From NCBI RefSeq assembly GCF_000018105.1, contig NC_009925.1, positions 6,060,001 through 6,092,000 of the forward strand: a stretch of DNA of 32,000 bases, written 5' to 3'. Position 1 is the first letter of the stretch, and every line of letters starts with the position of its first letter. Of this stretch, positions 3,715-28,681 are shown in pieces. Below the pieces are notes generated by a model, which was not told where the DNA came from, searched no databases, and worked only from the letters and a program-made list of their open reading frames with translations. Source of the DNA: Acaryochloris marina MBIC11017. GTDB lineage: Bacteria > Cyanobacteriota > Cyanobacteriia > Thermosynechococcales > Thermosynechococcaceae. Position numbers and translations under genes: made by a program.

Positions 3715-3907
3715 CAAAAAGGCTGCAAGTCAAAGTTTAAACAACTAAAAGCATAGAAAAGAGCTATTGAATTACATATTATGAACTTTTAGTATTTGAT
3801 GTTCTCATCAACCAGAATCAAAATCTTTTCAACTTTATTGTGTTAATAAAATGCTACGGCTAATCAATAAAAACACTTACTTCAAACAGGCATCTATCTT
3901 AAGATTT

Positions 3908-4621: not shown

Positions 4622-4631
4622 ATCATCTTCT

Positions 4632-5387
4632 TTACGCAGCAGTGTTGATGGTTTCACGGCCGAGATAAACCTCAATAACTTTAGGATTAGCTTGAATACT
4701 TTCGATAGAGCCTTCTGCCAAGACCTGGCCTTGGTGAAGCACTACGATTCTTTTTGCTATTTGTTTCACAAATTCCATATCATGCTCAATCACCACAACT
4801 GCATGAGATTTGGAAATGCTTTTAATAATTTCTCCTGTCATGTAGGTTTCGTCTCCTGTCATCCCAGCTGTAGGTTCATCAAGTAAGACAATGGACGGAT
4901 CCTGCGCCAAAACCATTGCAATTTCAACCCACTGCTTTTGGCCATGGGATAGAGAGGACACCTGCTCAAATGCTTTATCGACTAAGCCCGTTCTCTCTAG
5001 AGCATCGTGAATTTTGCTTTTTTTGGTTTGAGTTAATTTGGCTGTGATGGAAGCCAGAATCCCATGGGTTCCCTTAAGAGCTAAGAGAATATTGTCAAAT
5101 ACGGTTAATTCGTTATAAACATTAGGGTTTTGAAACTTCCGGCCAATACCCATCCGAGCGACTTCATGGGGCAGCTTATTGGTAATCTCCTTACCTTGAT
5201 ACCGAATATGCCCCGACGATACAGGAGACTTACTCACAATGGCATCTAGTAGTGTACTTTTCCCTGCACCATTGGGACCAATAATCGTCACAATTTCACG
5301 ATCAAATACATTCAGGTTCACACCACTTAAGGCTTTAAATCCTGAAAAAGTGACATTTAAATCTTCAACGGATAAAACGGCATCCAT
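4632..5387 (-). CDS. ABC transporter ATP-binding protein, LivG/UrtD-like
   Basis: It carries Walker A (GPNGAGKST), the signature LSHGQKQWV and Walker B (IVLLDEP). ATG 5387 is preceded by GGAG. The ORF-track start at 5396 is TTG. Confidence 0.9.
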   Translation of the reverse strand: MDAVLSVEDLNVTFSGFKALSGVNLNVFDREIVTIIGPNGAGKSTLLDAIVSKSPVSSGHIRYQGKEITNKLPHEVARMGIGRKFQNPNVYNELTVFDNILLALKGTHGILASITAKLTQTKKSKIHDALERTGLVDKAFEQVSSLSHGQKQWVEIAMVLAQDPSIVLLDEPTAGMTGDETYMTGEIIKSISKSHAVVVIEHDMEFVKQIAKRIVVLHQGQVLAEGSIESIQANPKVIEVYLGRETINTAA

Positions 5388-5414
5388 ATACTCCAACCCT
5401 CAATCCAATACTAT

Positions 5415-9657: not shown

Positions 9658-10749
9658 ATGGCATTTCATGGTGATATTTCTTCAAGTTATGATTCTGTTG
9701 GCGTTGCTGTCGTTAACTACAAAATGCCGAGGCTACATACTCAAGATGAAGTATTAGCTAATTGCAATAATATTGCTGAAGTCATAGATGGAATGAAGCA
9801 GGGCCTGCCTGGTTTAGACCTTGTGATTTTCCCTGAGTATTCAACTCATGGCATTATGTATGATTCCCAAGAGATGATGGATACAGCTTCCAGCATTCCA
9901 GGCCCTGAAACGGATATTTTTTCTGAAGCTTGTATACGGAATAAAGTTTGGGGTGTGTTTTCCCTCACGGGGGAGCGCCATGAACAACACCCAGATAAAG
10001 TCCCCTATAACACCCTTATTCTGATAAATGATCAGGGGGATATCGTCCAAAAGTATCGCAAAATTATGCCTTGGACTCCCATTGAAGGATGGTATCCAGG
10101 AAACTGTACGTATGTTACCGAAGGTCCCAAGGGTTTAAAAATTAGTCTGATTATTTGTGATGATGGCAATTATCCTGAAATTTGGCGTGATTGTGTTATG
10201 AAGGGCGCTGAATTAGTCATTCGCTGCCAAGGATATATGTATCCCGCCAAAGAACAGCAAATCATTGTTTCGAAGGCGATGGCATGGATGAACAATACTT
10301 ACGTGGCGGTTGCAAATGCTGCGGGCTTTGATGGCGTGTATAGCTACTTTGGTCATTCTGCAATCGTTGGGTTTGATGGTCGAACCTTAGGTGAATGTGG
10401 TGAAGAAGAAAATGGTATTCAATACGCTGCGCTATCCAAATTTTCGATTCGCGATTTTCGTAAACACGCCCAATCTCAAAACCACCTCTTCAAATTGTTG
10501 CATCGGGGATATACCGGCATCATTAATTCAGGGGAGGGAGATCAAGGCATGATGGAATGCCCCTATGACTTCTATAGGGAATGGGTTTTAGATCCTGAAT
10601 CAACGAAGAAAAAGGTAGAAGCGTTAACACGACCAACGGTGGGAACCCATGAATGTCCCATTGATGGCATCCCCAATCCAGCTACCAAAATCCCTGAAGT
10701 GAGAGTGAAAGAATCAGAGCCGATTCCGGTAAGACAAATCATTCCCTAA
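9658..10749 (+). CDS. amiE: Aliphatic amidase (acylamide amidohydrolase, nitrilase superfamily)
   Basis: It is near-collinear by eye with Pseudomonas aeruginosa AmiE ([23 protein letters not shown]...). The Glu-Lys-Cys triad contexts are present ([23 protein letters not shown]). AGGAG lies 7 nt upstream of the ATG. Confidence 0.95.
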
Positions 10750-11064
10750 GAATAGATGGTTGGGAAATCTCAGAATTGAGACCTCAAGGATCTATTCAAA
10801 ACGTTGGGTTCGTACTTTTTGTATTAACTCAATCACGATAATTTCATGATATTAATATTTTAAAAAAATGATCAAATTATACAGTTAGAATCTTAAGTTT
10901 CGTTTGTGAATTACTTAATAATAGATTGAAATGTAAATAGTATCATAGCAAACAAAACTAATATTTATTCGTTGTATAGTTTTAGTTAGATTCACTCCAG
11001 CCTATGTTCTACGTAGGCCTTTTCTTTGCTTTTTTTAAATTTTATTCTATATAAGCATTCAAGA

Positions 11065-11142
11065 TAGAAATCATTTCTATATATGTTTTAAGACAATTAA
11101 GCCTTAAAGCTTTAGATTTATATAGTCAATAGAATCATTCTA
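11065..11142. repeat. Two related perfect palindromes: TAGAAATCATTTCTA (11065-11079) and TAGAATCATTCTA (11130-11142)
   Basis: These were read directly. Both have TAGAA(A)T arms around a central C. They lie 65 bp apart and about 300-370 bp upstream of fmdA, in a very AT-rich spacer. Confidence 0.3.
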
Positions 11143-11438
11143 AATAAGCCTAGGGAATCTTGCGTAAGGTCAATATTTTATGGATATTTAGGGAATTAAT
11201 TTAATCCATCTAAATCAATATTTACTGTGGCCATAAATCAACAAAAATAATTTTATTTAGAGAAATACAAATATTTTTATTAATCTTTATTCAAAAGTAT
11301 CTAAATTATCTTTCAATTAAATTTTCCTGCTTTAACCTAACAATCATATTCATCCAGGAATTAATATTCTTGAGACTAATTCATAGATAAATAAATATTG
11401 ATAAGTTTCATTCTTACTACTATTAGGACTGCATCACT

Positions 11439-12653
11439 ATGCCCGAAACTCTCTTCAAAATAGATCTGACGAAGCCGATGCATGAACAAGATGTGCCAGG
11501 CCATAATCGATGGCACCCTGATATTCCAGCTGTCGTCTCTGTTAATCCAGGAGATATCTTCAGAATCGAATGTAAAGACTGGACAGATGGACAAATTGGC
11601 AATAATGATGATCCCAGTGATATCCGAGATGTTGAGCTACAAGTTGTTCATGTACTCAGTGGTCCGATTCATGTAAATGGTGCAGAACCAGGGGATATCC
11701 TAGTTGTGGACTTGCTTGATATTGGTGCTTTACCCGGAGATGAATGGGGGTTTACAGGCATATTCGATCGTAATAATGGAGGAGGATTCCTGACGGATCA
11801 CTTTCCTGAGGCAGCAAAAGCCTGTTGGGATTTAGAAGGTATCTATACTGAAACTCGTCATATCCCTGGGGTAAAATTTGCGGGCATTACCCATCCTGGA
11901 CTTATTGGATGTGCTCCATCCCAAGAACTATTAAATACCTGGAACCAGAGGGAACAAGCATTAGTTGACAAAGGGGACAGTGGTTGGGGGCCACCTTGGA
12001 AACCCCCAATCCCTCCCTATGCAGCACTTCCCAATCCAAATTATGCCGTCCTTGGGAAATTGGGGAGCTATGTCAATAAGGGACCAGAGTTTGACCGTGT
12101 TGCAGCAGAAGCCGCGCGTACGGTCCCTCCCCGAGAACATGGTGGTAACTGCGACATCAAAAACTTATCAAAAGGATCCCGCATCTATTTCCCGGTTTAT
12201 GTTGAAGGAGCTAAATTATCCATGGGGGATATTCATTTCTCTCAAGGGGATGGAGAGATCTCTTTCTGTGGGGCCATTGAGATGTCTGGCTATATTGACT
12301 TACACGTCGACATCATTAAGGGGGGGATGGAAAAGTATTCGATGATCAACCCCATCTTCAAACCTGGTCCCGTTGAACCTCATTATTCTGAGTATCTAAT
12401 CTTTGAAGGAATTTCTGTGGATGAATTTAGCGGAGAGCAATATTATCTTGATGCTCATGTGGCTTATCGAAGAGCCTGTTTGAATGCGATTAACTACTTG
12501 AAAAACTTTGGATTTACGGGAGAACAAGCATACTTGTTACTGAGTTGCGCCCCTGTTGAAGGGCGGGTTAGCGGTATTGTGGATGTTCCCAATGCTTGTT
12601 GTACCCTCGCTTTACCCACTGCCATTTTTGATCAAGATATTGTTCCCTCTTAA
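11439..12653 (+). CDS. fmdA: Formamidase/acetamidase (FmdA_AmdA family)
   Basis: The N-terminus and core resemble Methylophilus FmdA (HNRWHPD, GDxFRIEC.DWTDGQIGNNDD, VH.LSGPI.V.GAEPGD, GGGFLTDHFPEA). Confidence 0.93.
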   Translation: MPETLFKIDLTKPMHEQDVPGHNRWHPDIPAVVSVNPGDIFRIECKDWTDGQIGNNDDPSDIRDVELQVVHVLSGPIHVNGAEPGDILVVDLLDIGALPGDEWGFTGIFDRNNGGGFLTDHFPEAAKACWDLEGIYTETRHIPGVKFAGITHPGLIGCAPSQELLNTWNQREQALVDKGDSGWGPPWKPPIPPYAALPNPNYAVLGKLGSYVNKGPEFDRVAAEAARTVPPREHGGNCDIKNLSKGSRIYFPVYVEGAKLSMGDIHFSQGDGEISFCGAIEMSGYIDLHVDIIKGGMEKYSMINPIFKPGPVEPHYSEYLIFEGISVDEFSGEQYYLDAHVAYRRACLNAINYLKNFGFTGEQAYLLLSCAPVEGRVSGIVDVPNACCTLALPTAIFDQDIVPS

Positions 12654-15509: not shown

Positions 15510-18500
15510 ATGGGATCGCGCTGGCCTGTAACTTGGCAACCCGTATCAACCAGCATCATTAACCCCCAGCCACTAACCGTGACTGTCGATACGCCTGTGA
15601 TGTCGGTCTTGAAGCAGATGAGCCAGCTTTATGGGGCAGCCTGTGCATTTCCCGTAGACCCAAAGGAATCCTTGCTTCAAGCGAGCTGTGCCATCGTAAC
15701 CCATTCATCAGGACGGCTGGCGGGGGTTTTTACTGAACGAGATCTAGTTCAATTGATGGTGGAGGGACATGATCTTGCCCATGCCAACATTGGGGATGTC
15801 CTTCGTGACTTGCCAGTCACAATTTCTCCAGAACAGTGCCGAGATATTTCTGTCCCTCTTTTTTTAATGAGGAGGGCGAAGGTACAGCATTTACCTGTGG
15901 TGACTCCCCAGCAAAAAGTGCTGGGAATCGTTACTTTGGGCACCCTTTGTCAGGCAATTGAAGCAACCAACTTTTTGCAACTATGGTCTGTGCCGGCCGT
16001 GATGTCTACTGAAGTGGTTTGTGCAGCCCCCTCCATGTCGATCTTAGAAGTTGCCTGTCAAATGCATGCTCACCATACGAGTTGTGCAGTGGTTACTTGT
16101 CAGAAACAGCAAATGACACAACTCATTGGCATCATCACTGAACGAGATATTTTACAGCTACAAACCTTAGGGATACCAATGACCACCACCTTCGTTGAGC
16201 AGGTGATGAGTAGCCCGCTATTTTCAGTCAATCCTAAGGATAGTTTGTGGTCGGTGTATCAACAAATGCATCACCATCACATTCGCCGGATGGTGGTGGT
16301 TGATTCAAATCAAATTTTGGGGATTGTCAATCAAGATGATCTGCTCCATTTATTTGATCCATTGGCGACGAACGCTTTAACAGAAGCTCTGCAAGGGCAG
16401 GTTAAGCAGTTAAGACTAGAAAAAGTTGACTTGTTGCAGGGTCAAAGTTACGGCATAGAGACCCAACAGTCGCTAGAAGATATTAACCATGCCAACGATC
16501 AAGTCCAACTCTTAAAACAACAGAATCAGCGACTTCAACAGGAACTTAAGCATAAGGAGCAAGCGGAAGCAGAATTAAGCCAACAAATTAAGCAGGAACG
16601 ACTCCTCCGACTCATCACCCAAGAGATCCATAGCACCACAGATCTCAAGGAACTCCAGTCTATTGTTGTCCATCAAGTCCGTCAGGCTGTTGGTGCTGAT
16701 CGAGCCTTGCTGTTTCGCTTGATGCCAGGGGGTGGCGGCATCATTCTCGAGGAATCTGTTCTCCCGAACTATCCTGCAATGGAAGAGTTAGACGGGGAAG
16801 ATCAAGATTTTCCACCTGAATATTATGAATTTTATCTCCACAGACAACCTCGAATCGTTTTGGATGTGGACCAAGATGACTGGAGTCAATGTCTAAAGCA
16901 ATTCTGGCTGCCAGCTCAAGTCAAATCTAAAATTGTGGCCCCTATTGTACAGTCCCAAGATCATGGCCACAGCCGATTGTGGGGGCTGTTGGTTGTTCAT
17001 GCCTGTGAATACCATCGGGTGTGGCAGCCAGATGAAGCATTATTTCTGCAGCAAGTGGCCAATCAATTTGCGGTTGCAGTTCAACAAGCTGATTTAGCCA
17101 TACAGTTGCAGCAAGAGTTAGTAGAACGTCAACAAAGCGATCGGGCTTTAGCTCAAGAGTTACAGCGATCACAATTGTTGGGAAAAATCGCTCAGAAGGT
17201 TCACGAAAGTCTGGATAGCCTGCATGTTTTTGAAACGGCAGTGGTAGAAATTCGTCGTGCTCTCAAAGCGAGTCGATGCAACATTTATATCTATAGTGCT
17301 ACGGATGAACCTCATTTTTCTTTGATGTTTCATGACTATGAAGCGGATTATCCTGATCGTGGCCCAGAGATTGTCCGCTTGGCCGACCATGAGTATGCAC
17401 GACGACTGGTAAGCCAATCAGAAGCCATTGTCAGCCCCCAGGTTCAATCTGATCCATTATTGGCCAACGGTTTACCAATGGTTAACGCACTGTCCATTCA
17501 ATCCATGGTTAGTATTCGTACGTCTTATCAAGGTGATGTGAATGGTGCGATTACGATTAGCCAATGCGATCGCATCCGGGATTGGACCCTTGAGGAAGTA
17601 GACTTACTCGCTGCAGTCGCCACAGAAGTTGGCATTGCCCTAGCTCATGCCAACTTGCTGGCCCAAGAACTCCAACAGCGAGCACAACTCTCCCAAAAGA
17701 ACCAACAGCTGCAAACTGAAATCGAAGAGAAGAAACAAACACAGACCCTTCTCAAACTTGTGATGGATTCTATTCCCCAGGCAATCTTTTGGAAGGACAA
17801 GGCCTCCCGCTATTTAGGGTGTAATCAAGCTTTTGCCCAAGAAGCAGGTTTTAACACTGCAGAAGATATTATTGGCAAAACGGATCAAGAAATGCCTTGG
17901 TCATCGGAAGAAGCTGAATGGCATCGTCTCTCTGATCTAGAGGTCATGAACTCCAAGCAACCTCAATTCCATGTGCTTGAAACTCACCTGCGGGCCGACG
18001 GGACCAAAACTTGGTTGGATACCAATAAAGTCCCCCTTCATAACCTTAAAGGGCAAGTCGTGGGTCTTTTGGGAACCTCAGAAGACATCACAGAGCGAAT
18101 TCAGATCGAAACCGAGCTGCAACAGCAGCTCCAACGAGAACAGGTCTTATCCGAGATTACCAACCAAATTCGTCGAAGCCTCGATCTTGATGTCCTTTTG
18201 AAATCTGCTGTAGATCAGCTTCGTGATCTATTCCAAGTGAGCCGATGTTCATTTTTTACCTACTCGGACCAGCCAAATTCACAACTCATTCTCTCCGCCC
18301 AAGCCTATGCACACCCCGAATGGGAAGCCGCTCTTTCTGATCCTCTTCCCACCTCAGATCATCCTCGTTTCATAAAGTTACTTGCGAATGATCGAGTACA
18401 TGCTGTGTCTGATATTTGGCAAGAGCCTAGCCTTTCAACAACAGAGAAAGAACTGTTATCAACTTCCCTTAGAATTGGAGCTTATCTCAGCGTTAGAACG

Positions 18501-20804
18501 GCTTTTAAACATCATCCGAATGGCATTATTTTCCTCGACCAATGCGAGCGCCGACGGAATTGGACCAAAGATGAAATCTCTCTATTGGGAGCAGTTGCGG
18601 CTCAGCTGGGGATTGCCGTTGCCCATGCTGATTTATTAGCGGATGAACAGAAGCAGCGTCAGAATTTGAATCTTCAGAATCATCGTCTTCAAGAAGAGAT
18701 CGTTAATCGAAATCAGGCGGAAAAGGCTTTAGCCAAGCAACTCGAAAAAGCTGAACTATTAGAGCAAATTGTTCGGCAAATTCGGCAAAGTCTAGAACCC
18801 CAGTTAATTTTTCGCACTGCTGTGACCCAGGTACGGAAATTACTGGCTGTAGATCGCGTCTGCATCTATCGGTTTATAGAGGATGCTGGCTACTCTCAAG
18901 GCATGATGGTTGCGGAAGAAGTACTCCCAGAGTTTCCGTCTGCCCTCACAGCACAAGTTCGAGACCAATGCTTTGGTGATGAATATGCAACTCAGTATCA
19001 GAACGGTCGCTTTCAAGCTGTTGCTGATATCTATGATGCCGGTCTCAGTGAGTGCCATATCGAGATTTTGGACCTGTTCCATATTCGTGCCAACTTGGTT
19101 TTGCCTCTCCTTCAGGGAGATAATTTGTGGGGATTACTCTGTATTCATCAATGTTCAGGGCCACGGTCTTGGCAGCCTGATGAAATAGAATTTGTGCAAA
19201 AGATTGCGAATCAGCTTGGTATTGCCCTCTATCAAGCGGAACTCTTGCTGAAAGAGCAACACCAACGTCATGTTTTATCCGTTCGAAGTCAAGAATTAAC
19301 CTTCAATAATCAACAGTTAGCGAAGGCTAAACAGGAAGCCGAAACAGCTCAAAGGAAAGCAGAACAGGCTAATCGAGCCAAGAGTATTTTTCTAGCAAAT
19401 ATGAGCCATGAACTGAGGACACCATTAAATGCCATCCTTGGTTTTAGCCAGTTGATTAGTCGCGACCCCAGCACCCCAAACTATCAGCTAGAGCAGCTCG
19501 AAATTATTAATCGCAGTGGTGAACATCTGCTGGCCTTAATCAACGATGTTCTCACCATGTCCAAAATTGAGGCAGGACGGTCTTCTCTACGTTCCCAAAT
19601 TGTAGATCTACCGTTGCTTCTAGATACCGTGGAAAATATGCTTGGCCTTAAAGCAGAGAAAAAAGGTCTAAAACTGATATTTGATCGTGGACTTACCCCC
19701 CCTCACTACATTCGGACCGATCCAGGCAAACTCCGTCAGGTATTAATGAATTTATTGAGTAATGCCATTAAATTTACGACCAGTGGTCATGTCCAGTTAT
19801 GCCTAGAGTCTAATACCTTAGATACCCCAGAGGGGGCTGGAGTTCCTCCATTATTAGACGTCCGGTTTACGGTTTCAGATACCGGGTCCGGCATTGCCCC
19901 AGAAGAACTTAAGTTGTTATTTGAACCGTTTGCTCAGACAGAAACCGGGCGTCAATCCCAAGAAGGGACGGGTTTAGGCTTAGCCATTAGTCGGCAGTTT
20001 GTACAGATCATGGGGGGTAATCTTACTGCCCACAGTATCCATAATCAGGGAACTACGTTAACGTTTAATATCGTGGTTGAAACTGTCCTGCAGAAAAAGC
20101 AACTTGGTTCCCATCGTCAGGTCATGCAACTCTTACCGGGACAACCTCACTATCGAATTTTAGTGGTAGAAGACAATGTCGATAGTCGTGAGCTGTTGGT
20201 AACCTTACTGGTAACCGTAGGTTTTACCGTGAAGGCTGCCGAGAATGGTGAAGTAGCCATTGCACTGTGCCAATCATGGCAACCCCATTTAGTTTGGATG
20301 GATTTGCGGTTACCTGTTTTAGATGGTCTGAGCGCTACTCGTTTGATCAAGCAGCTGGAGACACCCCCAGTAGTCATTGCCTTAACTGCTAATGCCTTTG
20401 ATGAAGATCGTGACTTGGCACTACAAGCAGGGTGTGATGACTTTGTCCATAAACCCTATCGAGAAGCCAGTATTTTCGAGAAAATGGCCCTTCATTTAGA
20501 AGTGCAGTATCAGTATCAAGAGAAGGAACTGCTCAAATCAACGATTCCTACCCTCAATGTGGAGCAGCTCGCTCAAATGCCTCACCCTTGGCTAGTTCAA
20601 TTACATCAAGCGACCAACAACCTCGACCAACACATGGTTGAACTTCTCCTGGATGAGCTTGATGAGACCAATCAACCCTTACAAGAAGCCCTTAGGCATC
20701 TAGTGCATGAGTTTCGTTATGACGAAATATTAGCGGTGACTCATCCTCTCCTTTCCCCGCCCCTCCAAGAATCTACTGAACCCCCTCAAGAATCTACTGA
20801 ATAA
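15510..20804 (+). CDS. Multidomain hybrid sensor histidine kinase (about 4 CBS - coiled coil - GAF - GAF - PAS - GAF - GAF - HisKA - HATPase - REC - conserved tail)
   Basis: Approximate domain positions:
- CBS-like repeats at about aa 20-280.
- GAF domains starting near aa 365, 556, 879 and 1083, each ending in a (H/S/D)xC..R.W..(D/E)E motif.
- PAS near aa 747 (DSIPQAIFWKD...GTSEDITERIQ).
- H-box MSHELRTPLN (His about 1300).
- N/G boxes (NLLSNAIKFT, DTGSGI, GTGLGLAIS).
- REC with DLRLP (Asp about 1598). Confidence 0.92.
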   Translation: MGSRWPVTWQPVSTSIINPQPLTVTVDTPVMSVLKQMSQLYGAACAFPVDPKESLLQASCAIVTHSSGRLAGVFTERDLVQLMVEGHDLAHANIGDVLRDLPVTISPEQCRDISVPLFLMRRAKVQHLPVVTPQQKVLGIVTLGTLCQAIEATNFLQLWSVPAVMSTEVVCAAPSMSILEVACQMHAHHTSCAVVTCQKQQMTQLIGIITERDILQLQTLGIPMTTTFVEQVMSSPLFSVNPKDSLWSVYQQMHHHHIRRMVVVDSNQILGIVNQDDLLHLFDPLATNALTEALQGQVKQLRLEKVDLLQGQSYGIETQQSLEDINHANDQVQLLKQQNQRLQQELKHKEQAEAELSQQIKQERLLRLITQEIHSTTDLKELQSIVVHQVRQAVGADRALLFRLMPGGGGIILEESVLPNYPAMEELDGEDQDFPPEYYEFYLHRQPRIVLDVDQDDWSQCLKQFWLPAQVKSKIVAPIVQSQDHGHSRLWGLLVVHACEYHRVWQPDEALFLQQVANQFAVAVQQADLAIQLQQELVERQQSDRALAQELQRSQLLGKIAQKVHESLDSLHVFETAVVEIRRALKASRCNIYIYSATDEPHFSLMFHDYEADYPDRGPEIVRLADHEYARRLVSQSEAIVSPQVQSDPLLANGLPMVNALSIQSMVSIRTSYQGDVNGAITISQCDRIRDWTLEEVDLLAAVATEVGIALAHANLLAQELQQRAQLSQKNQQLQTEIEEKKQTQTLLKLVMDSIPQAIFWKDKASRYLGCNQAFAQEAGFNTAEDIIGKTDQEMPWSSEEAEWHRLSDLEVMNSKQPQFHVLETHLRADGTKTWLDTNKVPLHNLKGQVVGLLGTSEDITERIQIETELQQQLQREQVLSEITNQIRRSLDLDVLLKSAVDQLRDLFQVSRCSFFTYSDQPNSQLILSAQAYAHPEWEAALSDPLPTSDHPRFIKLLANDRVHAVSDIWQEPSLSTTEKELLSTSLRIGAYLSVRTAFKHHPNGIIFLDQCERRRNWTKDEISLLGAVAAQLGIAVAHADLLADEQKQRQNLNLQNHRLQEEIVNRNQAEKALAKQLEKAELLEQIVRQIRQSLEPQLIFRTAVTQVRKLLAVDRVCIYRFIEDAGYSQGMMVAEEVLPEFPSALTAQVRDQCFGDEYATQYQNGRFQAVADIYDAGLSECHIEILDLFHIRANLVLPLLQGDNLWGLLCIHQCSGPRSWQPDEIEFVQKIANQLGIALYQAELLLKEQHQRHVLSVRSQELTFNNQQLAKAKQEAETAQRKAEQANRAKSIFLANMSHELRTPLNAILGFSQLISRDPSTPNYQLEQLEIINRSGEHLLALINDVLTMSKIEAGRSSLRSQIVDLPLLLDTVENMLGLKAEKKGLKLIFDRGLTPPHYIRTDPGKLRQVLMNLLSNAIKFTTSGHVQLCLESNTLDTPEGAGVPPLLDVRFTVSDTGSGIAPEELKLLFEPFAQTETGRQSQEGTGLGLAISRQFVQIMGGNLTAHSIHNQGTTLTFNIVVETVLQKKQLGSHRQVMQLLPGQPHYRILVVEDNVDSRELLVTLLVTVGFTVKAAENGEVAIALCQSWQPHLVWMDLRLPVLDGLSATRLIKQLETPPVVIALTANAFDEDRDLALQAGCDDFVHKPYREASIFEKMALHLEVQYQYQEKELLKSTIPTLNVEQLAQMPHPWLVQLHQATNNLDQHMVELLLDELDETNQPLQEALRHLVHEFRYDEILAVTHPLLSPPLQESTEPPQESTE

Positions 20805-20980
20805 GCCCTCTGAATTAAATGGGTAAGCTAATCAACAGGTACCGGAAGTCTCCTGAGAAGTGATCACCTAATGCTCACAGGCAATCCGTTCTCTCAATCT
20901 ATTCAGTTTGCTCTGGCAAGTAACGGCATATGGGTGTCTTGCTATCTGTGCTGAATAAATGCCCCATCTGTTCTTGATAC

Positions 20981-21489
20981 ATGGCCAGATACAGTACCAC
21001 TCAAACATTACAATCCCTAGTTGTGATCGGTGTTGTCGCAGGCTTCTCTTTTGTGCCCATTTACTACGGGGGCTGTACCTTCAGAAAGGACATCAGTCAG
21101 AAAGCTGGACATCCACAACAGCTCTCGTTGAACAATCGGAAACAATTCGGACACCGAGTGGAGATACTAAAACTCATCTCAACTACAAATTTAAATATCG
21201 ATATTGGGTCAATGGAAAGTCTTATACGTCCCATCGCAACTCTTATAAAGCAGGAGGTGGAGATGTGGCTGAGATTGTAAACCGATTAAAAAAGGGAGAT
21301 TCTGTGCAGGTCTATTACAATCCCAATACCCCATCAGAAGTTGTGGTGGAACGAGGCTATTCCTTACTGCAGATAGTGTGGATCGCAGCAGGCTTAGGAG
21401 GGCTGGGTTTTTGTGGCCTGGGGTTAGTTGGATTATGGATGGATCCTTTAGATAGAAACCCTCATCGCCATGCTTCCGATATGGAATAG
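20981..21489 (+). pseudogene. DUF3592-like membrane protein gene with an apparent frameshift at a G5 run (21068-21072)
   Basis: The frame from ATG 20981 encodes the expected N-terminal TM helix (LQSLVVIGVVAGFSFVPIYYGG). The DUF3592 core (SWTSTTALVEQSE...YKFKYRYWVNGKSY...VQVYYNPNTPSEVVVE) and the C-terminal TM helix are in the frame of ORF 20959..21489. One extra G in the run would join them. Confidence 0.7.
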
Positions 21490-21519
21490 CACTATATCTA
21501 TTTTATGAATATAGTGCTA
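21487..21519. promoter_or_regulatory. 11-bp perfect inverted repeat TAGCACTATAT-N11-ATATAGTGCTA upstream of padR: candidate PadR operator and/or terminator of the DUF3592 gene
   Basis: This was read directly. The left arm starts at the TAG stop of the upstream gene. TTTTT follows the right arm. TGAATATAGT is also directly repeated at 21506-21515 and 21524-21533. Confidence 0.35.
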
Positions 21520-21556
21520 TTTTTGAATATAGTAACCCAGACTACTTAGGTCCAAT

Positions 21557-21886
21557 ATGTCAGAACTCAACTTACGTTTGACACCTAATCAGGAGGTCAT
21601 CTTAGCGGCCTTACGATTACATAGACGTTATGGTCTTGAGATTCTAGCTGCTATTGAAAATAGTGGGGGAAAGCAGATTGGTTTTAATTCCCTCTATCCC
21701 AATTTGAAGAAATTAGAGCATAAAGGACTCGTCCAGTCGGAATGGGGAGATGAGCCTCCAGAAGAGCATAGTGGGGCAAGACGGAAGTATTACCGGATTA
21801 CTGATGTAGGCATTAGAGCATTAGATCTTAAACAAGAACTATTAGCTGGGGTATCAGCCTGGATACCTGAAACAGAAGGGGCATGA
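21557..21886 (+). CDS. PadR-family transcriptional regulator
   Basis: It has a PadR winged-helix signature (RYGLEIL..IE...G......NSLYPNLKKLEHKGLVQSEW......RKYYRITDVG). Confidence 0.85.
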   Translation: MSELNLRLTPNQEVILAALRLHRRYGLEILAAIENSGGKQIGFNSLYPNLKKLEHKGLVQSEWGDEPPEEHSGARRKYYRITDVGIRALDLKQELLAGVSAWIPETEGA

Positions 21887-21887
21887 T

Positions 21888-22826
21888 ATGAATGAGAAGG
21901 ACTTAGAGCTTGCAGGTAAAACAGGACGGTTTGCTCGTCAGTTTCCTCAAGTATGGCAAGAGTATCAGGACTGGTTGAGAGCCATTGTCTCTTCTCGGGA
22001 GCAACTGCAACAACGCTATGCCAAGGGACTTGCCAGTCTGATATTCAGATGGCGATTGCTGTATTTTGGCATCTACATTGTAGCTATGGCTGGATGTAAG
22101 ACCGTGATTCAAAGCCGAAACCAGCTATCGACTCGGCAAGGTGATAGGGATAAGGCTCTTGCCTTGGGCCAGACCGAGAACGTAACCCAATCTCTACAAA
22201 TTAATCGTACCTATTTTATTCTGCAAAGGATAGCGACGCTTTTAGCCGTGGCGGAATTAACCCTATGTGGTCTAGCAGCGCTTACGGGCGTCATGCTGGC
22301 GTTCTACTATCAACCGACAGCGATTGGTGCTCATGCATCGTTGTATGCGATCGCATATCACATCACCAACGGCAATCTTATCCTCAGCTTACATAATATT
22401 GCTGGGAATGGCCTCATAGTTCTGGCTTTAGTCCAAATTGTCGTTATGTTTTTGGGGCGACAGTTTATGAGATCTTGGTTAACGGCTTGGATTAGCGGTA
22501 TTTGCCTAGCCCTAGCAACAATAGGTCTTAGCTGGACCGCCATTATTCTCAATTGGGACCAGATCGGGTTCTGGCGATTTAAGATTGAGCTCAACATTAT
22601 TGGATCCTTGCCTGCAGGCTCATTTCTCCGGGAGGTCCTAGCCGGTGGGAGCGCTATCAATACCCTGACGCTGCAGCATATGTATACATTGCACAGCTAC
22701 GTACTTGCGATCGCAGCCCTGCTTCTGTCTATTATTCATCTCGCAGCCCATATCTTCCAAGAAAAATCATGGGCTCAAATTGCTCCTGGGAGCTGGTGTT
22801 CTTCAGAAGATACCAGCACAGTTTAG
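21888..22826 (+). CDS. Membrane protein with an N-terminal extension (1 TM) fused to a cytochrome b6 (PetB)-like four-helix core
   Basis: The ATG lies 1 nt after the padR stop (TGAtATG). The region TGVMLAFYYQPT...SLHNIAGNGLIVLALVQIVVMFLGRQF...WTAIILNWDQIGFWRFKI...TLQHMYTLHSYVLAIAALLLSIIHL aligns without gaps, by eye, to PetB (TFYYRPT...[27 protein letters not shown]...YSLPWDQIGYWAVKI...[24 protein letters not shown]). Confidence 0.7.
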   Translation: MNEKDLELAGKTGRFARQFPQVWQEYQDWLRAIVSSREQLQQRYAKGLASLIFRWRLLYFGIYIVAMAGCKTVIQSRNQLSTRQGDRDKALALGQTENVTQSLQINRTYFILQRIATLLAVAELTLCGLAALTGVMLAFYYQPTAIGAHASLYAIAYHITNGNLILSLHNIAGNGLIVLALVQIVVMFLGRQFMRSWLTAWISGICLALATIGLSWTAIILNWDQIGFWRFKIELNIIGSLPAGSFLREVLAGGSAINTLTLQHMYTLHSYVLAIAALLLSIIHLAAHIFQEKSWAQIAPGSWCSSEDTSTV

Positions 22827-22867: not shown

Positions 22868-23434
22868 TTAATCAAGCCAATGCACTCCGTTGTCAGACGT
22901 GGGAGGGGACTCATTGGCCTGATTAGCCTCTGAAGCCGAAGGCATTTCTTCATTGGGGTCAAACTGAATAAACGGATTGACACTCACATCCGTGAGACTA
23001 TCCGGATCAATAATCATGTAGGGGGGTTCCCCAATATGTTCTGGATAAAACTGCTCAACGAAAAAATCCAAGGTGGCTTGTCGAATATAGCCATTCAGAA
23101 CGGCAAGGGCTCCAAACCGTAACCCTGTCTTTTTCTGGGCTGCCAAGATAGCATCGACCATGTTTCGATCAATCAGTCCAGCCCGACGAAAATAGCTACC
23201 AATGGGAACTGGCTCTGCTTGAGTATCTGGGTAGGGCCACTGATCACCAAAAAAGTCAGCCGTTTGTTGTTGAACCCACCCATGGAGTGTCAGAATCTCA
23301 CCCAAGCGCATCATTTCATACAGCCGCTGCTCATAAAGGGCAGTCTCTAGTTGATGGGGCGTAATCAGATCTGACGCGCACAAACGCTCACCAATTTTGT
23401 GAGAGTTTTGGATTAGGGTGGGGCCAATCGTCAT
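22868..23434 (-). CDS. Stand-alone protein with two MshEN/GspE-N (T2SSE_N)-like domains
   Basis: There are four 24-aa segments of the RLGxxLLxxGLLxxxxLxxxLxxQ type: KIGERLCASDLITPHQLETALYEQ, RLGEILTLHGWVQQQTADFF, PIGSYFRRAGLIDRNMVDAILAAQ and RFGALAVLNGYIRQATLDFFVEQ. No ATPase domain is present. Confidence 0.6.
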   Translation of the reverse strand: MTIGPTLIQNSHKIGERLCASDLITPHQLETALYEQRLYEMMRLGEILTLHGWVQQQTADFFGDQWPYPDTQAEPVPIGSYFRRAGLIDRNMVDAILAAQKKTGLRFGALAVLNGYIRQATLDFFVEQFYPEHIGEPPYMIIDPDSLTDVSVNPFIQFDPNEEMPSASEANQANESPPTSDNGVHWLD

Positions 23435-23840: not shown

Positions 23841-23899
23841 AGTTCCAGTATTGTCAATTAGGAACAAAACCTTATTAAAACCATGAAGACAGAGGACGC

Positions 23900-24145
23900 T
23901 TATCCCTCTCCACCTTCTCCACCTTCTCCACCATCATCAGAGGAACCATCTTCTCCACCTTCTCCACCATCATCGGTGGAACCATCTTCTCCGCCTTCGC
24001 CACCATCATCTGCAGGGCTTTCCACAGCTGGGCTGGGGCTTTCTTGTTCACCACCTTCACCATTTGTTGTGCCACCATCACAGGCAAAAAGGGTAGCCGA
24101 TAAACCTAAGGCAAGAAATAACTCAACTGATTTGGAACGTTTCAT
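23900..24145 (-). CDS. Small hyper-acidic Gly/Glu/Asp-repeat lipoprotein
   Basis: MKRSKSVELFLALGLSATLFAC is a signal peptide with a lipobox. The mature 59 aa consist of G/E/D/S with DDGGEGGEDGS(T/S) repeats. The ATG is at 24145 and the ORF-track start at 24154 is GTG. Confidence 0.6.
   Translation of the reverse strand: MKRSKSVELFLALGLSATLFACDGGTTNGEGGEQESPSPAVESPADDGGEGGEDGSTDDGGEGGEDGSSDDGGEGGEGGEG
23915..24010. repeat. Three copies of a 36-bp-period tandem repeat (core TTCTCCACCTTCTCCACCATCATC) inside the lipoprotein gene
   Basis: The cores are at 23915-23938, 23951-23974 and 23987-24010. The third copy has 2 substitutions. Confidence 0.9.
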
Positions 24146-24380
24146 TGTAGTCACTTAAATTTTCAACAGAGCTGGAATCATCCTACCGTTTATTCACATC
24201 AACTCTCATTAAAAAGAAAAATGATTGCTCAAAACTTCAGGTTTTTTTCAGATTGACTTTAAGCATTCGAGGGATGAAACAGTTGATATATAAGTCTTTC
24301 AGCAGGGTTTCATACATGATGTCGACCTAAAGGTTTCCGATTAGACCCTCAATATAGACCTTGGAAGATCCAATTTTATA

Positions 24381-24846: not shown

Positions 24847-25968
24847 ATGCAAAACTACGGTAACCCTGAAGTTACCTATGGCTGGTGGGCAGGTAATTCC
24901 CGCGTAGCGAACTCTTCAGGATTATTTATTTCCGCCCATGCGGGCCATGCTGGCTTGATATCAGTTTGGGCTGGTGGTTTTACGTTATTTGAACTGGGTC
25001 GGTATTCCACTGAATCTCCCATGTGGGATCAGGGACTTGTGCTCCTCCCTCACCTGGCTGCTGAAGGCATTGGTTTTGGGTCTGGTGGAATTTTGAATGA
25101 TCCGCAACAACTAGTTGCAGTGGGTATGGTCCACATTATCGCTGGGGCCGTTCTGGGCGCTGGCGCGTTGTTCCACATCCTGAAAGCGCCGCTTGATCTC
25201 AGTGATGCTTCGGGTGCAGCTCGTACCTATCATTTCGAGTGGGATGATACAGCTCAATTGGGGCGGATATTAGGGCATCATCTTCTCATTCTGGGCCTAT
25301 ATGCGCTCTTATTTGTGGGTTGGGCCATGTTTTGGGGAGGACTCTACGATCCTGACTTACAAGAGGTTCGTCTAGTCACGGATCCAACTCTCAGTCCCTC
25401 AGTTATTTTTGGTTATCAAACCCATTTCGACAGTGTAGATAATTTGGAAGATATTGTTGGGGGCCATATTTTTATTGCTGCTCTAGATATTGTCGGTGGG
25501 ATTTTTCACTTGCTTGTTCCCATGCTTCCTTGGGCTAAGAAGCGCGTCCCTGTTAATGGAGAAGCGATATTGTCCTATTCTCTGGGAGCAGTGGCTTTCT
25601 TCGGTTTTCTCTCTGCCTATTGGTGTTCGGTTAATACCTATGTGTGGCCAGAAGAATTTTACGGACCGGCCTTGCAAATCAAGTTTGGCTTTACACCCTA
25701 CTTTGCAGATACGGTAGACCTTCCTTACGGTATCCATTCCGCCCGTTGTTGGCTATCTAATGCTACCTATATCTTGGCATTCTATTTCCTCCAAGGTCAT
25801 CTTTGGCATGCCCTGAGAGGTCTTGGTTTTGACTTTAGATCCGTCGATAAGTTCCTTAATTCATTGACTTACGATGAACAGGTAACATCTGCCAAACCCA
25901 AGCAATCGAAGAATGCTATGGCACCTGTTCCGGCAACTACTCCACCTGCGCAGACGGCCGAAAATTAA
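24847..25968 (+). CDS. isiA: Iron-stress-induced chlorophyll-binding protein (CP43-like IsiA/Pcb family)
   Basis: The N-terminus [53 protein letters not shown] is typical of IsiA/Pcb. There are six TM segments and flavodoxin lies downstream. GGAGA is upstream of the ATG. Confidence 0.95.
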
Positions 25969-26110: not shown

Positions 26111-26623
26111 ATGACACAAATCGGAATGTTCTTTGGCACAACCACTGGAAAAACAGCGGAAGCAGCTGAAAAAATTCAAGAAGCCTTTGGTGGGGAAGAT
26201 GTTGTTACTCTGATCGAAATCCCAGATGCTGAAAACGATGACTTTTCCAGTTACAACTTCTTGTTGATTGGTTGTCCGACTTGGGATATCGGTGAACTGC
26301 AAAGTGATTGGGACGCATTTTTTCCTAATCTAGACAGCATTGATTTTTCCGGCAAGAAAGTGGCGTATTTTGGTACCGGTGATCAAGTGGGCTATGCCGA
26401 TAACTATATGGATGCCATCGGCATGATTGAGGCAAAAATCTCTGAAAAGGGTGGCCAAACCGTTGGCTATTGGTCAACGGATGGGTATGAATTTGATGGT
26501 TCTAAGGCAGACAGAGGCGGAAAATTTTGTGGTTTGGCACTGGATGAAGATAACCAGTCTGAACTCTCTGATGAACGCATTGAAGCTTGGGTTGCCCAAG
26601 TTAAAACAGAATTCGGAATATAG
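26111..26623 (+). CDS. isiB: Long-chain flavodoxin
   Basis: It has the FMN-binding start IGMFFGTTTGKTAEAAEKI, plus PTWDIGELQSDW and the long-chain insert. GGAG is upstream of the ATG. Confidence 0.95.
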   Translation: MTQIGMFFGTTTGKTAEAAEKIQEAFGGEDVVTLIEIPDAENDDFSSYNFLLIGCPTWDIGELQSDWDAFFPNLDSIDFSGKKVAYFGTGDQVGYADNYMDAIGMIEAKISEKGGQTVGYWSTDGYEFDGSKADRGGKFCGLALDEDNQSELSDERIEAWVAQVKTEFGI

Positions 26624-26709: not shown

Positions 26710-27456
26710 ATGACTCACTCCATTGATGCTGTCTGGACAACGACTAGTCCCTATCTCAAACGTTTTGACCAACCCCTACTGGATCGCTTGAGCAAACACA
26801 AAACGATTGCTCAGTGGCAGTACCAACAAACTGCGGATGAACCCAGCTCCCTGAGTACAGCGGTGGGTCTCCTGCATGAATATATCCAAAATTTTGACCA
26901 TCCTATTCATTTAATGGGGCATGGCACAGGTGGGTTAGTGAGCCTAATGTATGCACGTCAATGCCCACAGAATGTTCGGTCCCTCACAATACTGGGGGTT
27001 GGCGCATCAGCCACCCTAGACTGGATGGCCCACTATTATTTTCATCTCCAATTTATGCCTAGCAACCGTCGTCAGATTCTAACTCAGCTGATTCCCGATC
27101 TATTTGGTGAACAAAATTCAACCGTCACTTGCTACCTCAGTCGGCTATTGGAAAAGGAAATGATGGTTTCTCCTTCACCTCATTCCCTATTTCAACGCTA
27201 CAGTTTGCCCCCTAGCGGTGTATCAATGCCCCTATTTGTTTGTGGCAGTAAAAATGATCCTGTAGTCGATAGCCAGGCTTTGAAGGAATGGCAGCGTTGG
27301 ATGAAAGGATGCGATCGCATATGGCAATGCAAGAGCGGTTACCACTTTTTCCACTGTTTTCATCCGCAGCCCATCGCAGAACAAATTCTGGACTTTTGGC
27401 AAATCAAATCAGAGCCTCCTATTCCATCTGAAACTTGGGATGTTTGCTCCGTTTAA
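26710..27456 (+). CDS. Alpha/beta-hydrolase-fold protein (isiC-like position) lacking the nucleophile Ser
   Basis: The nucleophile elbow reads HLMGHGTGGL where GHSxGG is expected. Asp-like (GSKNDPVVD) and His-like (SGYHFFH) contexts are retained. It follows isiB directly on the same strand. Confidence 0.8.
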   Translation: MTHSIDAVWTTTSPYLKRFDQPLLDRLSKHKTIAQWQYQQTADEPSSLSTAVGLLHEYIQNFDHPIHLMGHGTGGLVSLMYARQCPQNVRSLTILGVGASATLDWMAHYYFHLQFMPSNRRQILTQLIPDLFGEQNSTVTCYLSRLLEKEMMVSPSPHSLFQRYSLPPSGVSMPLFVCGSKNDPVVDSQALKEWQRWMKGCDRIWQCKSGYHFFHCFHPQPIAEQILDFWQIKSEPPIPSETWDVCSV

Positions 27457-28075
27457 TTCAGCATCAGTTTTTTACTTTGGTTGTCTGATGGTTTCTTCAC
27501 TATCTACCGCTCCTTTTTCTTCGTTTATGCACTCTCAGTCTAGTGGTTTGCAATCGTCCTTCTTCTCAGATCGAGCCTTTTTACCCTCTGAATCGCAAGA
27601 ATTATGGCAAATTAAGCGAGGGCTTGTGAGAACCTATACCTGGGATTCCAATGGCAATATCACCACCTTGGGAATTTGGGGAACCGGAGATATCGTTGGG
27701 CAATCGCTGTCAAACGTTACACCTTATATGATCCAGACCTTAGGAACCGTTGAAGCAACGTCCCAAGTCTCTAATCAATGGAATAATCCTGAAGCTATTC
27801 TCAGTCATGCCCAGCAACTCACCATTCTGCTTAAAATCATTAGTATTAAACGAGCAGACGATCGGTTATTAAGCTTGCTTCAATGGTTGGCCCAACGTTT
27901 TGGCTATATAACTCCCACAGGAACATGCACAACCTTGCCCATCACTCATCAAGAGCTAGCAGAAACCGCTAATGTCACGAGAGTTACAGCCACTCGACTG
28001 ATAGGTGATTTGGAGCAACAGGGCGTTCTATCATGGTCTCGCCGACGTCAGTTTGTACTGTTGAAGCCATCCTAA
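27440..28075 (+). CDS. Crp/Fnr-family transcriptional regulator
   Basis: It has a cNMP-binding-type beta-barrel segment (RGLVRTYTWDSNGNITTLGIWGTGDIVG) and a C-terminal HTH (ITHQELAETANVTRVTATRLIGDLEQQGVL). ATG 27440 overlaps the upstream gene by 17 nt. An alternative ATG is at 27488. Confidence 0.8.
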   Translation: MFAPFNSASVFYFGCLMVSSLSTAPFSSFMHSQSSGLQSSFFSDRAFLPSESQELWQIKRGLVRTYTWDSNGNITTLGIWGTGDIVGQSLSNVTPYMIQTLGTVEATSQVSNQWNNPEAILSHAQQLTILLKIISIKRADDRLLSLLQWLAQRFGYITPTGTCTTLPITHQELAETANVTRVTATRLIGDLEQQGVLSWSRRRQFVLLKPS

Positions 28076-28126: not shown

Positions 28127-28681
28127 TCAAGCATCTTTTGTCAGAGATTGGACTATCTTGAGGGACTCATCAATATGGCCCTGGAAGTTCAACTGCGAAT
28201 TAAAAATATGACGAACAACGCCGTCAGTATCAATCACATAGGTCACTCGGCCAGGTAATAATCCTAATGTAGAGGGAACCCCAAAGGCCTTACGGGCTTG
28301 ATTGGCTCCATCGCTCAATAAGGTAAAGGGGAGTTGGTACTTATTGGCAAACTGTTGATGGGAATTTGGGGTGTCGTTACTGACGCCAATCACCTCTGCC
28401 CCCGCTTCTTGAAAAACGGTATAACTATCCCGAAAACCGCAGGCCTCTTTCGTACAGCCAGGGGTATCATCTTTGGGATAAAAATAGAGGACAACAATCT
28501 TTTCCCCTAAGAAGTTTTTAAGGCTAACGGTTTCTCCTGTCGGGGTTTGGAGAGTTACATCGGGAACTGAGTTACCAACTTTGATTGCCATTGATTTGGT
28601 TTGAATGTGAGACTTTTGCTCTTCTCCCAATGCTATCAGAGAAATCTCATCCCAATTATAGAGACCTAGAGGGTGCACCAT
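28127..28681 (-). CDS. Peroxiredoxin, Bcp/PrxQ type (AhpC/TSA family)
   Basis: It has the active-site context YFYPKDDTPGCTKEAC. An alternative start at 28591 (MAIKVGNSVPD) would remove a 30-aa non-conserved extension. Confidence 0.9.
   Translation of the reverse strand: MVHPLGLYNWDEISLIALGEEQKSHIQTKSMAIKVGNSVPDVTLQTPTGETVSLKNFLGEKIVVLYFYPKDDTPGCTKEACGFRDSYTVFQEAGAEVIGVSNDTPNSHQQFANKYQLPFTLLSDGANQARKAFGVPSTLGLLPGRVTYVIDTDGVVRHIFNSQLNFQGHIDESLKIVQSLTKDA

Follow-up and report, generated by a model that had tools for sequence, protein, structure and literature searches.

A 32,000-nucleotide (nt) stretch of Acaryochloris marina MBIC11017 (contig NC_009925.1, positions 6,060,001–6,092,000; hereafter the window, whose own numbering is used throughout) contains a gene for a small regulator of the PadR family, padR, followed immediately by a gene for a 312-residue membrane protein that resembles cytochrome b6. 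This padR/cytochrome b-like pair is a real, tightly coupled and conserved two-gene unit of cyanobacteria. On balance it is probably an autoregulated signalling unit, in which PadR would be governed by a b6-derived membrane partner that passes its signal through an N-terminal region of its own, referred to here as the EYQDWL domain.

The gene pair and its junction

The two genes and the junction between them are as follows.

21557..21886, plus strand: padR, encoding a 109-residue PadR-family winged-helix regulator of the small (subfamily-2) size class (Pfam PF03551)
21875..21890, plus strand: translational-coupling junction, with a purine-rich Shine-Dalgarno-like GAAGGGG in the final padR codons and then TGA-t-ATG (from the sequence and a survey of junctions)
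21888..22826, plus strand: gene for the 312-residue cytochrome b6-like protein (open reading frame with a PF00033 match)

The two open reading frames (ORFs; 21557–21886 and 21888–22826) confirm the junction read in an earlier note on this DNA, in which the second gene starts 1 nt past the padR stop codon (TGAtATG). Coupling at a distance of 1 nt suggests stoichiometric co-production of PadR and its partner. Since the next gene (22868–23434, minus strand) is convergent, the two-gene operon ends at 22826. A search of PLSDB returned no match, leaving a plasmid origin unsupported. The earlier note had also suggested the DUF3592 gene upstream (20959–21489, E=1.8e-14) as a member of the unit; it is present here but stands beside the pair in no other locus. 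PadR is the sole conserved neighbour in a neighbour survey, in which the DUF3592 gene, the large sensor kinase gene and the downstream genes of the window are not kept beside the pair.

Long and short forms in cyanobacteria

A search of 5.8 billion proteins returned 931 matches to the partner, of which the best 120 are full-length (about 290–330 residues), are 54–96% identical and come from Acaryochloris, Leptolyngbya, Symploca, Pleurocapsa, Hyella, Lusitaniella and many metagenomes. When one genome per species was scanned, 64 cyanobacterial loci were recovered; these divide into 31 encoding this long form and 33 encoding a short form of about 205–250 residues, which starts near residue 100 of the long form and is without the N-terminal extension. 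A PadR ORF lies immediately upstream in 29 of the 31 long-form loci (ORF search; phmmer E=1e-47 to 1e-64 against the window PadR). In a thirtieth locus, that of Mastigocoleus testarum BC008 (L029), padR is likewise directly upstream, and a group II intron separates the partner's first 37 codons from its remaining ones. The sole long-form locus without padR is that of Leptolyngbya sp. PCC 7375 (L013, 5600–6001).

The association of padR with the long form (30/31), set against its absence from the short form (0/33), is highly significant (Fisher p = 2e-17). A survey of the co-occurrence of padR with petB-like genes had been proposed in the earlier note; padR is directly upstream in all long-form loci but one. 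The junction is also conserved. By direct count 27 of the 31 loci have a stop-N-ATG arrangement with a preceding GGGG or GGAG run, and the number of stop-N-ATG junctions rises to 29 if an upstream ATG is used at two of them (L005 and L006). In a neighbour-joining tree of the core, the long forms make up one clade nested among the short forms, so that the N-terminal extension appears to have been acquired once; this points to a single fusion event that came with padR. Among the short-form loci no neighbour is conserved in more than 8 of 33.

Two loci have features of their own. The intron of M. testarum (2018–5399, with reverse transcriptase/maturase ORFs at 2752–4483) splits the gene within the EYQDWL domain, after about codon 37; the same organism also has the short form (L049/L050) in addition to the long one. 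The Leptolyngbya locus retains ..GGGGGTATGAcATG just before the start codon, which resembles a remnant of a padR 3' end and suggests that padR was lost there by a recent deletion.

The distribution of the two forms bears on a simpler explanation of the pair, a plain repressor/effector operon. PadR might itself sense a small molecule (a phenolic, a quinone, heme or a drug) and de-repress the operon, in which case the cytochrome b-like protein would be the effector, for example as a membrane electron sink or in heme handling, and its N-terminal domain would serve assembly or localisation. The existence of the short form is in its favour, as the cytochrome b-like core evidently serves some purpose independently of PadR. 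Against it stand the correlation of the extension with padR and the 1-nt coupling, with the stoichiometric co-production that this suggests.

The N-terminal EYQDWL domain

Two segments precede the four-helix core of the partner.

21888..22103, plus strand: EYQDWL domain, residues 1–72 (AlphaFold2 helices, invariant columns and profile search)
22104..22229, plus strand: variable basic linker, residues 73–114, probably cytoplasmic (charge statistics of 84 homologues)

Three helices are predicted in the EYQDWL domain (residues 3–16, 20–43 and 46 onward) in the full-length AlphaFold2 (AF2) model, where the predicted local distance difference test (pLDDT) is about 90. Residues W23, Q27, W29, L30, W55, R56, L57, Y59, F60 and Y63 are invariant, and residues 1–72 are conserved to the same degree as the heme ligands. 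The linker that follows is poorly conserved and of low pLDDT, with a mean of 7.6 Lys plus Arg and a net charge of +5 over the 84 homologues.

No family in Pfam or NCBIfam matches the EYQDWL domain. A profile of the region, searched against 1.84 billion representative proteins, retrieves the long form together with about 30 small cyanobacterial membrane proteins of 80–270 residues, in which the domain is C-terminal and follows 2–4 transmembrane (TM) helices. The small proteins share the pattern xLAxxI, PxEW, EYQDWL[HR]DI, PxW[KQ]V and I[TF][YF]WRL, followed by a stretch of about 12 hydrophobic residues and a basic tail. All five of those examined (of about 30) are encoded 1–54 nt downstream of padR; the padR genes at these five loci are, by eye, roughly half identical to that of the window and have related TATATC..GATATA dyads upstream. 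Matches of about 180 residues were considered as possible PadR fusions (‘Rosetta stone’ proteins), an idea that was rejected as they are 2-TM proteins with a C-terminal EYQDWL domain instead. On a metagenomic contig (L083, 3947–4000), the 54 nt that separate padR from a 2-TM EYQDWL partner are taken up by about 5 tandem copies of the heptamer GTTAGTT.

Because the domain is exclusively padR-associated across at least three architectures, it is proposed to be a PadR-partner module, the element with which the membrane protein would contact the regulator. Control of PadR by the membrane protein has strong indirect support in these sequence comparisons. The repressor/effector operon fits them less readily, in that the N-terminal domain is found only beside padR, and this includes tiny 2-TM proteins without a plausible effector moiety.

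The earlier note had described a soluble N-terminus followed by an extra TM helix ahead of the core. A membrane-spanning helix is doubtful. The hydrophobic core of the helix in question is 14 residues long and peaks at 1.46 on the Kyte-Doolittle scale, and the helix is flanked by RWR on one side and by the +5 linker on the other; the same hydrophobic helix ends the small proteins, where only a short basic tail comes after it. Given the short core, the basic residues on both sides and the basic tail as all that follows in the small proteins, the helix probably does not span the membrane and probably belongs, as helix 3, to a domain that is cytoplasmic or dips into the membrane. In the simplest consistent picture, the EYQDWL domain and the linker would be cytoplasmic, with helix 3 dipping into the cytoplasmic leaflet and the core oriented as in b6. 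In most of the complete 2-TM partners TM helix 1 has a Glu within its first turns, and the arginine of the WRL motif is invariant in the EYQDWL domain of both long forms and 2-TM partners. It is tempting to suppose that Arg56 (WRL) contacts such a Glu and would thereby connect the domain with the TM module.

The cytochrome b6-type core

The remainder of the partner, with the codons aligned with the heme ligands of b6, is laid out as follows.

22230..22763, plus strand: cytochrome b6-type four-helix core, residues 115–292 (PF00033, structure-chain search and alignments)
22392–22394, plus strand: His169 codon, equivalent to b6 His86, a heme bp ligand
22434–22436, plus strand: Gln183 codon, equivalent to b6 His100, with the heme bn ligand replaced
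22692–22694, plus strand: His269 codon, equivalent to b6 His187, a heme bp ligand
22737–22739, plus strand: His284 codon, equivalent to b6 His202, a heme bn ligand
22764..22826, plus strand: variable C-terminal tail and stop codon (ORF call and family alignment)

The kinship with cytochrome b that the earlier note had read from the sequence is upheld by the profile of PF00033 (Cytochrome_B), which matches residues 125–286 with 77.6 bits (cutoff 27.2; E=1.4e-21). The top matches among solved structures are cytochrome b6 chains (E=5.8e-24 to 6e-21), with bc1 cytochrome b at about 1e-10. In HMMER and MAFFT alignments H169, H269 and H284 correspond to H86, H187 and H202, and Gln183 takes the place of H100, just as the note had it; the helix-D spacing of 15 residues is of the b6 type, and the WDQIG(F/Y)W motif is kept, NWDQIGFW aligning with PWDQVGYW of b6. 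The alignment is not gapless, as had been claimed, and contains one or two single-residue insertions or deletions. The partner is also like cytochrome b6 (PetB) in its FYYxP motif and in core loops that follow the positive-inside pattern, and unlike it in an N-terminal addition of 110 residues.

None of the 31 long forms (the window and 30 further loci) departs from H169, Q183, H269 and H284. The H/Q/H/H pattern recurs in 31 of the 33 short forms, and Gln occupies the b6-H100 position in 32 of them. Being fixed across the family, Gln183 is a genuine invariant residue and not sequencing noise. The short forms (L032–L064), ‘Gln-type’ b6-like orphans, are about 56% identical to the partner over the core and share with it H86/Q100/H187/H202, R147 and E151; they differ in being without the EYQDWL domain, padR or a conserved neighbour, and in lacking E123, C127 and G128, long-form-specific residues that share a face of helix A within the n-side leaflet. 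Judged by these alignments, Gln at the n-side site is a fixed feature of a distinct cyanobacterial b6-like clade and not a local oddity. One long form, that of Symploca sp. SIO1C2 (L021, 5962–7026), carries a 35-residue in-frame insertion (TALRAVTRYIKIDDEKIYQILITYSGVPHCSGKRC) just before helix D, which separates the conserved LQH from MYTLH.

Other departures from b6 are common to long and short forms. The position of b6 Ala147 (Gly143 in bc1) is an invariant Arg, that of Val151 an invariant Glu and that of Arg207 is hydrophobic, while G37, G132 and G135 are replaced by Ala, Ser and Ala respectively. Gly51 of b6 is kept, as G134. With regard to Cys35, which carries heme cn in b6 through a thioether, the helix-A register (G51=G134, G37=A120) places Leu118 opposite it; the computed alignments leave Cys35 in a gap and pair Leu118 with Phe33. 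There is no conserved Cys at the site either way, and both Cys35 and Arg207 of the n-side site are lost.

Conservation of both bp ligands and of Gly51 (G134) argues for at least one b heme, and the p-side bis-His heme (His169/His269) is most likely retained. As His284 and Gln183 are both invariant, the n-side site is probably functional but altered, and may either be occupied by a five-coordinate heme or be free of heme. At Qp, quinol binding of the classical kind is unlikely, since subunit IV is absent and the b6 Ala147 (bc1 Gly143) position is Arg. The quinone sensing suggested in the earlier note becomes doubtful on the same grounds, together with Glu at the Val151 position and the loss of Cys35 and Arg207 on the n side. 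The quinone site has therefore been dropped, and heme-based membrane-state sensing is kept as a working idea.

The core might alternatively be that of an alternative PetB, serving in a second or specialised quinol oxidoreductase of the b6f type, with the genes for the remaining subunits at other loci. The helix-D spacing and the conserved WDQxGxW would suit such a role, as would the name ‘cytochrome bc complex cytochrome b subunit’ that NCBI gives to some homologues. It is very unlikely, given the change of His100 to Gln, the loss of Cys35 (heme cn) and Arg207, and the Arg and Glu in the Qp region at positions 147 and 151. PetD, Rieske and cytochrome f domains are absent from 9.6–31.6 kb of the window and none of the three is a conserved neighbour across the 31 related loci, which agrees with the earlier judgement that this is not a second b6f operon. 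In addition, the core is only about 28% identical to true b6, and its 89.6 bits to PRK03735, the NCBIfam model of cytochrome b6, fall below the cutoff of 325. Another NCBIfam model, ExtP (NF040969, a b-type cytochrome of selenite/tellurite reduction), gave 96.2 bits, below its equivalog cutoff of 290, and this identity was rejected.

The PadR regulator and its putative operator

The assignment of the 109-residue protein to the PadR family is borne out by PF03551, which matches residues 15–89 with 60.7 bits (cutoff 27; E=1.4e-16). Its closest relatives among solved structures are LmrR-type PadR proteins (E about 1e-8 to 2e-9). The PadR-s2 subfamily is defined as proteins of about 110 residues with a single C-terminal helix (PMC3506622); the window PadR is of this size, and the solved structures nearest to it, those of the LmrR type, are PadR-s2 proteins. 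PadR orthologues are 68–93% identical across cyanobacterial genera, exceeding the partner's 54–96%, as would be expected if it has to preserve interfaces with DNA and with another protein.

LmrR of Lactococcus lactis, a PadR-s2 protein (PDB 3F8B and many others), has in common with the window PadR its size class and probably its single C-terminal helix. It differs in sensing drugs directly through a ligand pore formed by Trp96, whereas the window PadR has Leu96 at the aligned position, and in controlling an ABC (ATP-binding cassette) exporter, whereas the window PadR is coupled to a membrane partner. Direct sensing is common among PadR regulators, including LmrR, the closest solved relative (PMC3506622), and to that extent favours the repressor/effector operon; the replacement of the pore Trp by Leu96 does not.

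Upstream of padR lies a candidate operator that overlaps a probable promoter.

21485..21533, plus strand: operator/promoter element upstream of padR (inverted arms, conserved dyad and family alignment)
21493–21513, plus strand: dyad core TATATCTATTTTATGAATATA, conserved in the family and occurring once in the window
21515–21523, plus strand: probable extended -10, TGcTATTTT, inferred from the conserved TGnTAtwTT
21525–21533, plus strand: third half-site GAATATAGT, a direct repeat of the right half-site

The inverted repeat that had been noticed at 21487–21519 is real, with 13-nt arms at 21485–21497 and 21509–21521 that are 100% complementary. It is also part of the unit, as had been suspected, being a conserved element upstream of padR across the family. 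The right half-site is directly repeated 18 nt downstream. The 39-base-pair consensus of the whole element, TATATCyATTTwTTrGATATAGTGyTATwTTTGrATAwA, is found 58–99 nt before the padR ATG in 28 of 30 loci, with degenerate copies in two more. Chance would give 0.01 copies of the dyad core in the 32-kb window, against the one observed.

Scanning 842 kb of loci with a weight matrix of the element turned up sites upstream of padR only, in a test that is partly circular, the matrix being derived from those very sites. In metagenomes the exact dyad matched 95 times, nearly always by chance in AT-rich non-cyanobacterial contigs; the six matches that carry the extended motif are all the padR-upstream element, four preceding a padR ORF and two at contig ends too near for padR to be included. 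Dyad and third half-site are separated by a conserved TGnTAtwTT, a probable extended -10, although a generic -35/-10 promoter scan did not call it. PadR bound at the predicted operator would be expected to occlude this promoter.

Relation to known PadR/membrane-partner systems

The closest described type of system goes by the name of HAAS-PadR-like winged helix-turn-helix dyads, in which a standalone padR is paired with a partner that carries a helical domain on varied TM or intracellular sensors (Ravi et al., mSystems 2024, PMC11237479). These dyads have been put forward as a signalling route alternative to two-component systems, in which the helical domain relays the state of the sensor to PadR (PMC11237479). 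The pair described here is similar in having a standalone padR directly coupled to its partner, mostly with a 1-nt gap, and in the fusion of a small, all-helical domain (with three helices predicted) to different TM modules. It differs in that the EYQDWL domain sits either N- or C-terminal to the TM module, has no detectable HAAS homology and shows no conserved GxP motif like that which kinks helix 3 of HAAS, the confidence of the isolated-domain model being modest. The sensor module is moreover of the cytochrome b6 type, whereas PMC11237479 mentions neither cytochrome nor heme, and the lineage here is cyanobacterial.

The likeness raises the question of whether the N-terminal domain is a HAAS domain that has diverged past sequence detection and gained a new fused TM module. 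The layout would be the same, with padR followed by a partner that carries a three-helix cytosolic module on TM sensor modules, and the sole piece aligned by hhalign pairs FPxxW-QEYQDWL with LPEE..-QDYEDHF of a true PF22564 protein. The probability given to that alignment by hhalign is 0.8%. PF22564, DUF1700, DUF1129 and DUF1048 are unmatched at E<=10 in 38 N-terminal sequences and 9 small partners; Pfam scans of the window fragment and 38 family fragments (E<=10) and a profile search of the PDB gave nothing significant, and Foldseek with the AF2 N-terminal model returned nothing. The domain also lacks the GxP motif and is C-terminal to the TM helices in the small proteins, whereas HAAS is typically N-terminal (PMC11237479). 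Membership of HAAS was accordingly rejected on the defining sequence test (PF22564/DUF1700 and hhalign), and a divergent HAAS-PadR dyad appears improbable.

Another precedent is bcPadR1 (BC4206)/BC4207 of Bacillus cereus, a bicistron of a PadR-s2 protein and a membrane protein that is autoregulated; the inducer had no effect on DNA binding by bcPadR1 in vitro, suggesting that sensing is indirect (PMC3506622). The window pair is alike in joining a small PadR-s2 repressor to a membrane protein in what would be an autoregulated bicistronic unit. BC4207 is an uncharacterised membrane protein that gives bacteriocin tolerance and is not a cytochrome b homologue; the likeness drawn here is one of layout.

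A literature search, in which not all journals were covered, found no description of a PadR/cytochrome b pair or of the Gln-type b6-like clade, and nothing relevant on petB paralogues or PadR in cyanobacteria. The earlier note had called the module undescribed; this holds for the pair, but not for the type of system, since HAAS-PadR dyads are described (PMC11237479). The unit is best filed as a variant of the PadR/membrane-partner type of signalling, with a new partner domain and a b6-derived heme module.

Proposed mechanism

In the mechanism that we favour, PadR would act as a small dimeric winged-helix repressor and bind the conserved dyad and the extra half-site over the operon's own extended -10. 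The partner would be anchored in the membrane by its cytochrome b6-derived four-helix bundle, which would keep the p-side bis-His heme (His169/His269) and, on the n side, His284, with Gln183 for the second ligand and the Cys of heme cn lost. The N-terminal EYQDWL domain of about 70 residues would contact PadR physically and, depending on the state of the bundle (redox, ligand or heme occupancy), either hold PadR at the membrane or release it. The state of the membrane would in this way be converted into promoter occupancy at the operon and possibly at targets beyond it. The logic is that proposed for the HAAS-PadR dyads, and it resembles that of anti-sigma/sigma pairs.

A more specific form of this mechanism may also be considered, in which the b6 paralogue has been turned into a membrane heme sensor. 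A p-side bis-His heme, together with a five-coordinate n-side heme ligated by His284 with Gln183 on the distal side, would read redox state or a diatomic gas and switch PadR via the EYQDWL domain. This form is possible but doubtful. If true, the photosynthetic or respiratory membrane would be linked to transcription by a new route that relies on heme and needs no kinase.

Several points weigh against a signalling role of this kind. The AF2 model of the core is poor (pLDDT 50–73 and a predicted template modelling score, pTM, of 0.36, from 84 sequences), and in Foldseek its template modelling scores to b6 are only 0.36–0.48; the isolated N-terminal model is mediocre, with a pLDDT of 65. Several heme-packing glycines of b6 are Ala or Ser here (G37A, G132S, G135A), and the case for heme binding is drawn from conservation of the ligands. 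Should helix 51–70 span the membrane after all, it would put the N-terminal domain on one side and the basic linker on the other. Lastly, in the window, the 842 kb of loci and the metagenome scan, copies of the operator are found only upstream of the operon itself. A plain repressor/effector operon, the main rival reading, fits this last observation equally well and stays viable because of it, although, with the evidence on the domain, the coupling and Leu96 set against it, we regard that explanation as rather unlikely.

Surroundings in the window

Other genes and features of the window are listed here.

9658–12653, plus strand: carbon-nitrogen hydrolase and formamidase/acetamidase (PF03069, E=5e-188) genes in tandem, unrelated to the pair
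15510–20804, plus strand: 1764-residue hybrid sensor kinase with CBS pairs, PAS, four GAF, HisKA/HATPase and receiver domains (domain matches)
22868–23434, minus strand: 188-residue protein with two MshE-type cyclic-di-GMP-binding motifs (NCBIfam NF053729, E=3.7e-19)
24847–25968, plus strand: CP43-like chlorophyll protein (PF00421, E=2.6e-51)
25240–25417, minus strand: antisense RNA IsrR inside the CP43-like gene (Rfam RF01419, 95.4 bits)
26111–26623, plus strand: flavodoxin gene, following the CP43-like gene
27440–28075, plus strand: Crp-family regulator, adjoining the peroxiredoxin gene
28127–28681, minus strand: peroxiredoxin (AhpC/TSA), adjoining the Crp-family regulator

The hybrid sensor kinase gene ends 150 nt before the DUF3592 gene. 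The CP43-like gene, IsrR and the flavodoxin gene make up an isiAB-type iron-stress locus, which lies 2 kb from the pair and is not conserved beside it in other genomes; the Crp-family regulator and peroxiredoxin, taken together with isiAB, make this a region rich in iron- and oxidative-stress genes. Between the pair and this locus, a low-complexity repeat region (23875–24158) is found on both strands. Its plus-strand ORF consists of PSPPS repeats, and a minus-strand ORF (23900–24154) has a lipoprotein-like start (..LGLSATLFAC) followed by GGEGGED repeats.

Implications

The way in which the redox or heme state of cyanobacterial membranes is communicated to transcription is only partly understood, the known routes being histidine kinases or thiol switches. 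The proposed unit would be a compact alternative route, in which a b6-type heme protein is wired to a repressor through a dedicated partner domain. The EYQDWL domain, which is unnamed in databases, marks a set of cyanobacterial PadR/membrane-partner dyads. The Gln-type b6-like orphan cytochromes are likewise unnamed in databases, and their n-side change from His to Gln is of interest for cytochrome b evolution and for cofactor chemistry. Finally, with its conserved operator and its genes coupled 1:1, the unit may be useful as a membrane-state-responsive switch.

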